Shown here one piece after another: positions 11,359 to 12,021 of a stretch of 17,334 bases of DNA (within the stretch, counting starts at the first letter, position 1; each line of letters opens with the position of its first letter). The notes under the pieces are model-generated. The model ran no database searches. It was not told where the DNA came from and saw nothing but the letters and a program-made list of their open reading frames with translations. The position numbers and the translations under genes are program-made. The stretch is from a virus (Duplodnaviria > Heunggongvirae > Uroviricota > Caudoviricetes): IMG/VR virus record IMGVR_UViG_2690316086_000006. One strand, 5' to 3'.

Positions 11359-12021
11359 TCAAATAAAACCAGCTGCCTTCCGGCGTTCGTATTCCTGTTT
11401 CAGCCGCTCAATTGGCGTTGGCCCTTGCGGGTGTTTCGCCCCTTCCAGTTGTCGTCGCACTGGCGGAACACTCATCCCGTTACCAACATGCTTTGCCCAT
11501 TTCGTCAGTTGCCGTTCTGCAAGTAGTTTTAACTCACCCTGCGTCATCTGGCGCTCAATCCCTCTGGTACGCATTTCGAGGCAGATGTGGTACAGCACAG
11601 GCTGTGGCCACGGGTATTTATCACTCCCGTCGTATCGCCAGGATTCATTGCGCCAGCGCCGGTACTCTTCCATCACGGCATCCACCGTAAGACCAAATGG
11701 ATTTGCCCCACTCTCCGAAATCAGCGCAACAAACTCAGCCAGGTCCGGGGGCCACGTTTCACCCGCCCGGCAGCGGTCCATGCACTGACGGCAGACCAGA
11801 CGGATTTGCTGTTCAGTCATCGCACCAATCTGGGCAATCCAGAGCTTCGAAGGTGCGGCCCCGTTCTTCTGAGTCCAGCGGTTCGAATACACCTCCCCCA
11901 TAAGCTCCCACAGCTTCCAGGCCGTTTCCGTTGCTGATAAATCCGTTTTCACGTTCCCACTGTTCGCGTGCTGCCCGGATTTCCTGAACTGCCCGTGATG
12001 CCGTGCCACCTGATGCTGCAT
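11359..12021 (-). CDS. Replication protein P-like helicase loader (start uncertain: 12021, 11901 or 11820)
   Basis: Recalled similarity to lambda P (...DKYPWPQPVLYHICLEMR...); AAGGGGGT Shine-Dalgarno before 12021; the upstream part overlaps the O-like gene out of frame. Confidence 0.6.
   Translation of the reverse strand: MQHQVARHHGQFRKSGQHANSGNVKTDLSATETAWKLWELMGEVYSNRWTQKNGAAPSKLWIAQIGAMTEQQIRLVCRQCMDRCRAGETWPPDLAEFVALISESGANPFGLTVDAVMEEYRRWRNESWRYDGSDKYPWPQPVLYHICLEMRTRGIERQMTQGELKLLAERQLTKWAKHVGNGMSVPPVRRQLEGAKHPQGPTPIERLKQEYERRKAAGFI

Follow-up and report, generated by a model that had tools for sequence, protein, structure and literature searches.

The window, that is, the whole 17,334-nt stretch of viral DNA that was analysed, comes from an E. 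coli prophage and carries on its minus strand a gene for an O-like replication initiator followed by a gene for a P-like helicase loader. The O-like frame is open from 12877, with the ATG at 12823 as its probable start, and the initial annotation was right that it stays open to 11813: the ORF runs to a TGA at 11815-11813. The loader lies in the +1 frame of the initiator, its codons beginning one base downstream of the O codons. What had been described as an out-of-frame overlap of about 200 nt measures 209 nt, with the last 69 O codons and the first 69 P codons on the same bases, and it is kept in homologous prophages and in Vibrio phages. The features are listed here with their coordinates in the window.

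12823..11813, minus strand: O-like replication initiator gene, an ORF of 336 aa plus stop; RefSeq annotates the same span
12396-12483, inter-domain linker of the O gene: repeats TGTTCAAACA / TGTTTGAACA, possible iterons
12028..12034, minus strand: Shine-Dalgarno sequence AAGGGGG, 6 nt upstream of the ATG and inside O codons Lys-Gly-Val
12021..11359, minus strand: P-like helicase loader gene in its long form, the proposed true extent, an ORF of 220 aa plus stop (Pfam PF06992)
12019..12021, minus strand: proposed P start ATG, spanning O codons xAT and Gxx
11813..12021, minus strand: dual-coding segment, O codons 268-336 plus stop over P codons 1-70
11938..12021, minus strand: region A, in which the P leader (residues 1-28) lies opposite the linker of O and its helix (O 276-292, at 11948..11998)
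11816..11937, minus strand: region B, P helices alpha1 (30-53) and alpha2 (59-66) over the O tail (O 297-336)
11899..11901, minus strand: Met41 ATG, the PGAP start in Salmonella, Citrobacter and Klebsiella, giving a P of about 180 aa; a possible minor start
11818..11820, minus strand: Met68 ATG, the RefSeq/PGAP and GenBank start, giving a 153-aa P and an 8-nt overlap; in our judgment not the main start
11813..11815, minus strand: O stop TGA, on the third base of P codon 69 and the first two of codon 70

Domain assignments of the two proteins

From N to C terminus, the O protein comprises a DUF1376 domain (residues 5-87 in Pfam), a low-complexity linker, a DnaT-type ssDNA-binding domain (residues 192-258 in Pfam), a C-terminal helix and an acidic tail. 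The O protein scores 62.6 bits against PF17948 and matches the DnaT C-terminal domain in the PDB at 1e-20, and the DnaT-type domain is modeled by AF2 at a pLDDT of about 90. The full-length DnaT equivalog model gives O a score of 94.7 bits, below its cut-off of 201, and thus O is not DnaT itself.

For the P protein, Pfam places Phage_lambda_P at residues 58-187 (PF06992, 56.1 bits against a cut-off of 26), while the 'P-like helicase loader' family phrog_109 aligns residues 11-220 with profile positions 15-236 (E = 7e-62), and the N-terminal 68 aa of P match the PHROG P-loader profile even when taken alone. HHalign of P with the non-overlapping P proteins of phiV10, klb_E and HK639 reaches 99.9% over residues 12-218, and tblastn matches from the Vibrio phages and phiV10 begin at P residues 17-37. 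Residues W38, R48, W49, K52, N53, G54, P57 and W61 are invariant across 28 homologs. The AF2 models are of medium confidence only (mean pLDDT 68 and 65); in that of P, residues 1-28 are disordered (pLDDT below 50) and helices are predicted at 30-53 and 59-66. The stretch from residue 30 to 67, which forms these first two predicted helices, is conserved and aligns with non-overlapping P proteins, and a Foldseek search with P ranks highest the lambda P chains of 9oa1, a complex with DnaB (E = 1e-5 over 197-213 columns of alignment).

To the initial annotation, the P N-terminus looked homologous to lambda P. Homology to the P family stands, by profile-profile comparison, PHROG and predicted fold, but HMMER did not extend its match with lambda P in the PDB over residues 29-66, its alignments beginning at residue 67-69. 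For residues 29-66, homology rests on HHalign, PHROG, tblastn and Foldseek. By profile and predicted fold, then, we assign P as a lambda-P-type loader, with putative roles in DnaB loading and initiator recruitment. Domain II of lambda P spans residues 30-119 (PMC12661323), and by this comparison the short loaders of current annotations (residues 68-220) would miss half of the domain-II counterpart.

Conservation and constraint in the shared segment

Both frames are open, at the same offset and with an overlap of 209-215 nt, in all 73 unique loci with P identities of 63-100%. The offset is also unchanged in the Vibrio phages D77 and 199E37-1, which have 36% P identity and overlaps of 212 and 194 nt. 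Most of the homologous loci examined have an overlap of 194-224 nt in the same frame offset, and the arrangement is known from prophages of E. coli, Salmonella, Citrobacter and Enterobacter and from Vibrio phages, with further carriers in D68, two metagenomic viral contigs (L097/L098), an Enterobacter prophage (L106) and L109. A single-protein scan of viral contigs for more loci of the Vibrio type found none, and an alignment scan found two. There are two exceptions. The metagenomic contig L107 has an in-frame TAG in O before the P start, and in L108, from Symbiopectobacterium, O ends after 113 nt, without the acidic tail. The initial annotation had raised the case of O homologs ending before 12021; such homologs exist outside the clade (phiV10, phi80/HK639 and lambda types) and in L107, but not otherwise within the clade.

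We considered how often an open O frame would arise by chance. At the query locus, an exact dynamic programme gives a probability of 0.021 that the O frame is open across the overlap given the P amino acids, and the same probability calculated per lineage, given the P residues, is 0.005-0.085. Empirical controls give 2.9% and 1.1%, the former being the share of 70-codon windows in long ORFs of the enteric loci that have no stop in that alternative frame. For the P leader, an open frame is not significant once the O residues are taken into account (0.15-0.83), and the assignment of the P start therefore rests on the Shine-Dalgarno sequence, the ATG and the absence of alternatives, which are taken up in the next section.

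Constraint within the overlap is divided between the two frames. In region A, the first 84 nt, it is found in the O frame only: P residues differ in 63% of divergent pairs, O behaves like ordinary coding sequence, diversity is at its maximum at the third position of O codons (0.079), and AF2 predicts the O helix here. In region B, the remaining 125 nt, constraint is found in the P frame only: P residues differ in 21% of pairs, as in the rest of P, and diversity is at its maximum at the third position of P codons (0.067, versus 0.064 in P-only sequence). The switch zone between them, P codons 24-29, varies more than any other stretch, and does so at each of the three codon positions. An overlap of 209 nt would be affordable because constraint is partitioned into two parts in this manner.

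The Gly-rich, low-complexity O tail that was noted at the outset is readily seen; it is also acidic, and AF2 predicts it to be disordered (pLDDT 34-40). Its net charge is -3 to -8, against codon-shuffle null means of +1.2 to -2.5, and in all ten of ten lineages the tail is more acidic than the mean of stop-free codon shuffles (p = 0.001-0.17). The corresponding codon-shuffle test of the tail sequence is significant only among enteric lineages, the signal between E. coli and Vibrio being marginal or absent (p = 0.03-0.6), and given this weak result we do not claim selection on the tail at the level of sequence. The openness and the acidity of the O tail are kept beyond chance, and its sequence is nearly free; that the tail has a function, we infer.

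The tail over region B (O 297-336) might on the other hand be a functionless run-on, tolerated as a disordered segment, with only the O helix and P being of consequence. Such a reading would fit the unreduced P synonymous diversity in region B among close E. coli relatives, the O-frame identity of distant lineages, which lies within the codon-shuffle null in most comparisons, and the loss of the tail in L108. It fits less well with the openness of the frame: when region B is recoded by itself, chance leaves the O frame without a stop in just 7-21% of the recodings of each lineage (8-12% empirically), and still the frame is open in no fewer than four or five lineages with saturated synonymous sites. 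Nor does it sit well with the acidity of the tail in every lineage. The O stop, furthermore, occupies one and the same codon junction across the enteric group, D77 (TGA) and L097 (TAA), though the P residues there differ, and 13 enteric sequences show no variation at the third base of P codon 69, codon 67 likewise having an invariant third base. We consider a functionless tail unlikely, while giving it serious weight, and favor a tail that is retained.

Some features of the overlap are those of overprinting. Two out-of-frame ORFs are kept beyond chance in divergent relatives, L107 and L108 being the two exceptions; the novel product, the O tail, is disordered and compositionally biased; and the P N-terminus is present in non-overlapping P proteins. 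Because these proteins share its N-terminal region, the P frame would be the ancestral one, and the last ~70 residues of O are, as far as sequence comparison can tell, an extension overprinted on P.

The start of the loader and competing readings

The good Shine-Dalgarno sequence and ATG that the initial annotation placed at 12021 are borne out. The duplex of AAGGGGG with the anti-Shine-Dalgarno sequence has an energy of -11.8 kcal/mol, in the top 2% of positions over some 500-600 nt on each side, and the P frame is closed by a TAA at 12027-12025, just before the ATG. Over seven enteric lineages, energies at Met1 range from -7.1 to -12.6 kcal/mol, while those at the Met41 site range from -1.9 to -6.1 and those at the Met68 site from -3.1 to -5.5; the Vibrio phages have a weak Shine-Dalgarno sequence before their first ATG (-3.5 to -5.6 kcal/mol). 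The three bases AT and G are retained across the O codon boundary in nine divergent lineages although the O residue is variously His, Asn or Tyr, an ATG is also found at the equivalent position in L097/L098, D68, L106, L108 and L109, and homolog alignments contain no other conserved upstream P start. We judge the main P start to be the ATG at 12021, probably not Met68. RNAalifold, applied to seven divergent sequences over a 110-nt stretch around the start, found no conserved hairpin at the P ribosome-binding site. An RNA hairpin tying P translation to O translation was rejected, there being only a 5-bp stem (-4 kcal/mol) downstream of the start, as was stop-start coupling of the ATGA type, as the ATG at 11820, 5 nt before the O stop, has no Shine-Dalgarno sequence and is not conserved.

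Were P to start at Met68 (11820), coupled to the O stop 5 nt downstream, the P-frame ORF upstream would be non-coding. This is the current RefSeq/GenBank annotation, and the ATG adjoins the O stop much as in the ATGA junction of lambda O/P and is kept in the closest enteric relatives. The Shine-Dalgarno energy at this site is, however, at background (-3.1 kcal/mol), and the residue is Leu (encoded by CTA, CTG, CTC or TTA) in many homologs of 50-57% identity and in all of the Vibrio and metagenomic lineages. The initial annotation had asked about a P start at 11820 with no conserved residues upstream; annotators do use 11820, but the upstream residues are both conserved and homologous, with 38 codons under P-frame purifying selection equal to that on the rest of P and matching the N-terminal helices of non-overlapping P proteins. 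A product starting at Met68 would lack half of the domain-II counterpart, and a comparable deletion in lambda P, of residues 9-86, abolishes its function (PMC3640518), all of which makes this start very improbable. A start at Met41 (11901), which would shorten the overlap to 89 nt, or the use of both Met1 and Met41 to give two isoforms, is improbable as well. Met41 is nearly invariant, a GGGAG motif with a duplex energy down to -6.1 kcal/mol lies 3 nt upstream, and many database entries are ~180 aa long; on the other hand, the spacing of that motif is short, the site is weaker than Met1 in seven of seven enteric lineages, and D77 has Leu at the position. Met41 also lies mid-way in the predicted helix 30-53, and the residues that would be excluded, 30-40 (ATETAWKLWEL, with the invariant W38), are conserved with P-frame periodicity and align in the Vibrio phages.

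The frameshift that was offered as an alternative to a real overlap could be either biological or technical. A programmed +1 (or -2) ribosomal frameshift near ~11940, yielding an O-P fusion protein, would be expected to leave O-frame constraint upstream and P-frame constraint downstream, as observed, and phrog_15931 is matched by both O and P, as if it held fusions. The switch zone is hypervariable, however, with no conserved slippery motif, and the independent P Shine-Dalgarno sequence and ATG and the downstream O stop are all kept, although frameshifting needs none of these, so that we find this explanation barely credible. One apparent O-P fusion that we inspected (P0106) arose by an internal deletion, not by frameshifting. 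To an assembly or sequencing frameshift, or a decaying pseudogene copy, we give practically no credence: nothing specific speaks for it beyond the facts that prophage genes often decay and that degraded copies have been seen (L101, P0106), whereas a 1601-bp query over the two genes has matches in 1858 of 5426 complete E. coli genomes, of which 197 hold at least 80%, and the identical arrangement is found in other genera and in Vibrio phages. Comparative evidence thus selects a real overlap from among the three readings first offered (the others being a frameshift and a misassigned start), and we are fairly confident that O and P genuinely overlap, as a pair of genes conserved from ancient times, with two predicted products.

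If the start at 12021 is correct, the loader in RefSeq/GenBank would be short by 67 residues (153 aa) or by 40 residues (~180 aa). Between one and a half and two helices would be missing from the start of the domain-II counterpart in such truncated loaders, and any model or experiment that relied on them would probably be working with a crippled protein.

A proposed mechanism and comparison with known systems

We propose that ribosomes translating the initiator continue to the TGA at 11813, while separate ribosomes may begin at the Shine-Dalgarno sequence and ATG 12021 inside the O gene and produce the full-length 220-aa loader. The first 84 nt would encode the conserved O helix opposite the tolerant, disordered leader of P, the putative counterpart of lambda P domain I, and the next 125 nt would encode the first two helices of P domain II opposite the tolerant, disordered, acidic and Gly-rich tail of O. 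The locus would be a clean natural case of a cheap long overlap, in which each protein's disordered segment lies opposite its partner's structured segment. As part of this proposal, a putative docking peptide of the initiator, lying inside the loader gene, would pass on together with its cognate loader as one cassette that could be joined to varied origin-binding N-terminal domains; the same tail and P are found behind DUF1376, HTH_36, DUF6291 or unassigned N-terminal domains.

A more speculative idea, which we regard as rather doubtful, is that the genes form an interlocked cassette, in which a docking peptide of the initiator (the O helix plus the acidic tail) is encoded within the loader gene in another frame and co-inheritance of the two is thereby enforced. 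The docking peptide may even be laid over the very loader helices that it contacts. If this is true, an origin-binding domain recombining in upstream would gain the cognate docking tail automatically, and the overlap would be a coding-level device for co-inheriting two interacting surfaces in mosaic phage genomes. The VdhL loaders, which are phage-derived and have replaced DciA in the Vibrionaceae (PMC11087808), may be a candidate link for the reach of such a cassette; a search with the D77 loader protein returned only 19 phage-like matches, and chromosomal VdhL was absent among them.

The overlap represents a new form of the lambda O-P module. As in lambda, the initiator precedes the loader, P belongs to PF06992 / phrog_109 with a lambda-P-like predicted fold, and the N-terminal, origin-binding part of the initiator is variable while its C-terminal part faces the loader. 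The initiator gene here also contains possible iterons. The lambda genes, however, share only a 4-nt ATGA junction and not 209 nt, DUF1376 and DnaT-type domains take the place of the lambda O fold in the present initiator, and the loader is of a distinct subfamily (KNG..PS..WI motif) with ~15-18% identity to lambda P. A parallel to the extended initiator is lambda O', a read-through initiator species (Yates et al. 1977, as described in PMC3640518), whose C-terminus likewise runs on, out of the P frame, into the 5' part of P. Lambda O' is a minor product that needs UGA read-through, whereas here there is no stop to be read through and every O molecule would be extended. Its 34-aa extension is basic, is in the other alternative frame and is not homologous, while the O tail here is acidic and conserved in extent.

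In phages of the phiV10 / epsilon15 type, the domain types correspond, with HTH_36 and a DnaT domain in the initiator, and the P-family loader has the same leader and helices. The initiator of these phages stops soon after the DnaT domain, lacks both the helix and the acidic tail, and has a 4-nt overlap with P; from the sequences, this looks like the ancestral, non-overlapping state. The overlaps among phiX174 genes and that of lambda Rz/Rz1 resemble the present one in that both frames are kept, constraint is asymmetric, and the newer frame is disordered and compositionally biased. The present case differs in being a tail-to-head overlap of two partner proteins in one machine, in that constraint changes frame halfway, and in being common to enterobacterial and Vibrio phages.

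The YdaU/YdaV pair of the E. coli K-12 Rac prophage has the same DUF1376 N-terminal domain, with 95% identical DNA, and, like the cellular dnaT-dnaC pair, places a helicase loader behind an initiator or primosomal protein. There, the loader that accompanies DUF1376 is of the DnaC type, the genes share no bases, and the initiator has a different, DnaT-like C-terminal tip, NTVSLPDSAIPPGFRG, which we take to resemble the C-terminal end of E. coli DnaT. This difference suggests that the C-terminal tip of the initiator is matched to the type of loader. The locus points to a conserved C-terminal extension of the initiator that goes together with P-type loaders and is distinct from the tip found with DnaC-type loaders, and so provides a testable handle on loader-helicase recruitment by DnaT-domain phage initiators.

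Layout of the two genes and conservation of the overlap

The genes for the O-like replication initiator (O) and the lambda-P-like helicase loader (P) were read from their ORFs as follows.

12823..11813, minus strand: O-like ORF; the open frame starts at 12877, the probable ATG is at 12823 and the TGA at 11815-11813
12021..11359, minus strand: P ORF, from the ATG at 12021 to the stop at 11359, 220 aa
11813..12021, minus strand: segment shared by O and P, 209 nt, in which P codons start one base downstream of O codons

The initial annotation had the O-like frame open to 11813 and an out-of-frame overlap of about 200 nt, and the TGA and the 209 nt measured here bear out both. 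Pfam places DUF1376 at O residues 5-87 and the DnaT ssDNA-binding domain at 192-258, while Phage_lambda_P (profile positions 31-161) matches P residues 58-187. A YdaT-family gene and a transcriptional regulator gene flank O upstream, and a DUF1627 gene (10600-11343, minus strand) lies downstream of P; its mechanical ORF begins at TTG 11343, and the start in homologs and RefSeq is the ATG at 11325 (METVFDALK...), preceded by a GGAGGAA site. The 1601-bp segment 11300-12900, spanning both genes, is 100% identical in E. coli O26 and O103 prophages. Two antisense ORFs of 116 aa, at 11587-11937 and 12020-12370 (plus strand) opposite P and O, are open in homologous phages too, but are probably by-products, since codon-position diversity fits the O and P frames only.

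Scored regardless of annotation, every unique enteric locus (63-100% P identity; from E. coli, E. albertii, Salmonella, Citrobacter, Enterobacter, Phytobacter, Kluyvera and Scandinavium) has both frames open at the same offset, with an overlap of 209-215 nt. The architecture recurs in further loci, including Vibrio lineages whose P proteins are only ~36% identical to that of the window.

Table. Overlap length in further loci of the same architecture
Vibrio phage D77: 212 nt
Vibrio phage 199E37-1: 194 nt
Vibrio phage D68: about 194-200 nt
Metagenomic viral contigs L097 and L098: 218-221 nt
Enterobacter cloacae prophage: 224 nt
Contig L109: 200 nt

The O stop falls at the identical P codon junction (69/70) in the enteric group (TGA), D77 (TGA) and L097 (TAA), although the P residues at this junction differ among the three. 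There are two exceptions. In the Symbiopectobacterium locus L108 (stop at 2111-2113), O ends after 113 nt, keeping the helix described below but without the acidic tail; in locus L107, an in-frame TAG (1931-1933) lies 68 nt before the P ATG and the tail frame is open to the usual stop. O homologs that end before the P start, which the initial annotation named as evidence against the overlap, are L107 and those of the lambda, phi80/HK639 and phiV10/klb_E types, not those of the enteric and Vibrio loci.

An exact calculation conditioned on the P residues and on local codon usage puts the chance of an open O frame across the overlap at 2.1% (0.5-8.5% in eight other lineages). An empirical control on long ORFs found 70-codon windows open in the same alternative frame at rates of 2.9% for the enteric loci and 1.1% for the Vibrio and metagenomic ones; with 40-codon windows the rates were 11.6% and 8.2%. 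With the arrangement kept in enteric, Vibrio and metagenomic loci, the reading of O and P as real overlapping genes, one of those offered by the initial annotation, is supported, and we consider it probably correct.

Position of the P start

The recorded length of P varies with the pipeline (140, 153, ~180 or 220-223 aa), and among the loci concerned is L099 (2581-3042). Rac-SA53 (ydaU/ydaV), pPE4 and RefSeq PGAP have the 153-aa form from Met68 (11820; ATG 11818-11820), with an 8-nt overlap; PPompW records have the 140-aa form; PGAP in Salmonella, Citrobacter and Klebsiella gives ~180 aa from Met41 (ATG 11899-11901); and other gene callers give the longest form. The annotation of P in public databases is a clear error, and the evidence points to a start at 12021.

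The initial annotation had noted a good Shine-Dalgarno sequence and ATG at 12021. In the window, AAGGGGG lies 6 nt upstream of this ATG, and the P frame is closed by a TAA two codons before it. In seven enteric lineages the energy of pairing between this Shine-Dalgarno and the anti-Shine-Dalgarno is -7.1 to -12.6 kcal/mol, which ranks the site among the best 1-6% of positions nearby; the values are -1.9 to -6.1 kcal/mol at Met41 and -3.1 to -5.5 kcal/mol at Met68, close to a local background of about -3. The ATG straddles two O codons (xAT and Gxx), and the AT and G are always kept although the O residue is His, Asn or Tyr by lineage. Position 68 is Leu in many 50-57% homologs, and the Met68 codon is CTA, CTG, CTC or TTA in Vibrio and metagenomic lineages. 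The initial annotation had named homologs starting at 11820 with no conserved residues upstream as evidence against the overlap; annotators do use 11820, but residues 30-67 hold eight invariant positions in 28 homologs.

The proposed homology of the P N-terminus to lambda P is supported. Residues 29-66 gave no alignment to lambda P by HMMER alone, so this step rests on more sensitive methods. Profile-profile comparison matched residues 12-218 to non-overlapping P proteins (phiV10, klb_E, HK639) at 99.9% probability; residues 11-220 align to positions 15-236 of the 236 in phrog_109 ("P-like helicase loader"), which the first 68 residues match even on their own (E = 6e-4); and tblastn matches from Vibrio phages and phiV10 start at residues 17-37. 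AF2 predicts residues 1-28 to be disordered (pLDDT below 50), followed by helices at 30-53, 59-66, 70-85 and 94-103, and the sole significant PDB matches by Foldseek were lambda P chains of the DnaB-lambda P complex. Lambda P begins with a disordered lasso, domain I (residues 1-29), followed by a compact domain II (30-119) (PMC12661323), and deletion of residues 9-86 abolishes function (PMC3640518); by analogy, a 153-aa P would lack half of its domain-II counterpart.

Partition of constraint and the O tail

11938..12021, minus strand: region A, P residues 1-28
11816..11937, minus strand: region B, O tail over P helices

Seven divergent enteric lineages were compared in pairs. The share of pairs that differ is 63% for P residues 1-28, against 21% for residues 29-68 and 18-28% for the rest of P. 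The O codons over P 1-28 resemble ordinary O coding (48% amino-acid and 47% synonymous difference), while over P 29-68 O synonymous differences fall to 9%. At P codons 24-29, which are hypervariable at all three positions, per-site variation moves from the wobble position of O to that of P. Among 34 close E. coli relatives, diversity peaks at the third O position in region A (0.079, vs 0.071 in O-only sequence) and at the third P position in region B (0.067, vs 0.064 in P-only sequence), and therefore each half has one constrained frame. The AF2 model of the O C-terminus matches this partition, with a predicted DnaT domain (pLDDT ~90), a helix at residues 276-292 within region A, and a tail, residues 296-336, at pLDDT 34-40 that corresponds to region B.

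The tail sequence is nearly free of constraint, and it might be a tolerated run-on, which we think rather unlikely. The frame is kept open in lineages with saturated synonymous sites (chance ~0.1 per lineage for region B alone), the stop position is conserved, and in 10/10 lineages the tail is more negative (net charge -3 to -8) than the average stop-free synonymous recoding of P (p = 0.001-0.17); for these reasons we consider the tail to be maintained, and suggest that selection favours its acidic, disordered character in a generic way. Lambda O (locus L105, 956-986) ends in ...LDLTNTDWIYGVDL and HK639 gene 15 in ...WAYGVIR; these short, aromatic tips (that of lambda also acidic) loosely resemble the ...LDCPDWCDD end of the O tail, which may be coincidence.

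Expression, possible module exchange and known systems

Because P has its own initiation signals inside O, and neither a conserved RBS-sequestering structure at the P start nor a slippery site at the constraint switch (P codons 24-29) was found, the best reading of the sequence is that O and P would be made as two separate products. The Shine-Dalgarno of P is a G-run (12028-12032; about 3796-3812 in Rac-SA53) that counts five Gs in the window (G5) and seven in Rac-SA53 (G7). In Rac-SA53 no stop closes the P frame ahead of the ATG, so that a 1-nt slip would fuse O to P; this arrangement lacks conservation, and in the window the TAA prevents such a fusion. The one apparent fusion protein inspected, P0106, proved to have an internal deletion instead of a frameshift. 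Both O (107-347) and P (279-482) match phrog_15931 (482 profile positions, "unknown function"), a family that probably mixes the two proteins or includes calls of O-P fusions.

The O extension (helix and tail) was probably created by overprinting the 5' end of P, as the phiV10-type initiator, unlike the extended O here, stops just after the DnaT domain. We propose that the extension would be the initiator end facing the loader or helicase, and three observations support this role. The extension and P form a unit that sits behind DUF1376, HTH_36, DUF6291 or unassigned N-terminal domains. PPompW and pPE4 share DNA homology only from ~12376 (O codon ~150) downstream, through the DnaT domain, tail and P, which makes ~12376 an apparent mosaic junction. 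Conversely, vB_EcoS-683R6 (Rac type) has only the upstream DUF1376 part in common with the window, followed by a DnaC-type loader; this pairing has no overlap, and the initiator ends in a different tip (...PDSAIPPGFRG), which seems similar to the C terminus of E. coli DnaT. Along the transcript, the homology with PPompW and pPE4 begins shortly after a repeat cluster (12396-12483), with TGTTCAAACA / TGTTTGAACA in direct and inverted orientation, in the O linker between the DUF1376 and DnaT domains. These repeats look like putative origin iterons inside the initiator gene, comparable to ori-lambda inside gene O.

In an incomplete literature search we found no paper on this O/P overlap; a 2024 paper describes VdhL loaders of Vibrionaceae that derive from phages and were transferred together with an upstream gene (PMC11087808). 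The closest known system is the lambda O-P module, and the overlap is a variant of a known module type. In the lambda, phi80/HK639 and phiV10/klb_E types, the P-family loader has only a 4-nt junction or no overlap with the initiator. Lambda O', cited in PMC3640518 from Yates et al. 1977, is described there as a minor species that arises when translation passes a UGA and enters the 5' region of P. The O' extension is basic, 34 aa long and in a different frame from the O extension of the window. The TAG that splits the L107 initiator body from its open tail frame is reminiscent of lambda O/O'.
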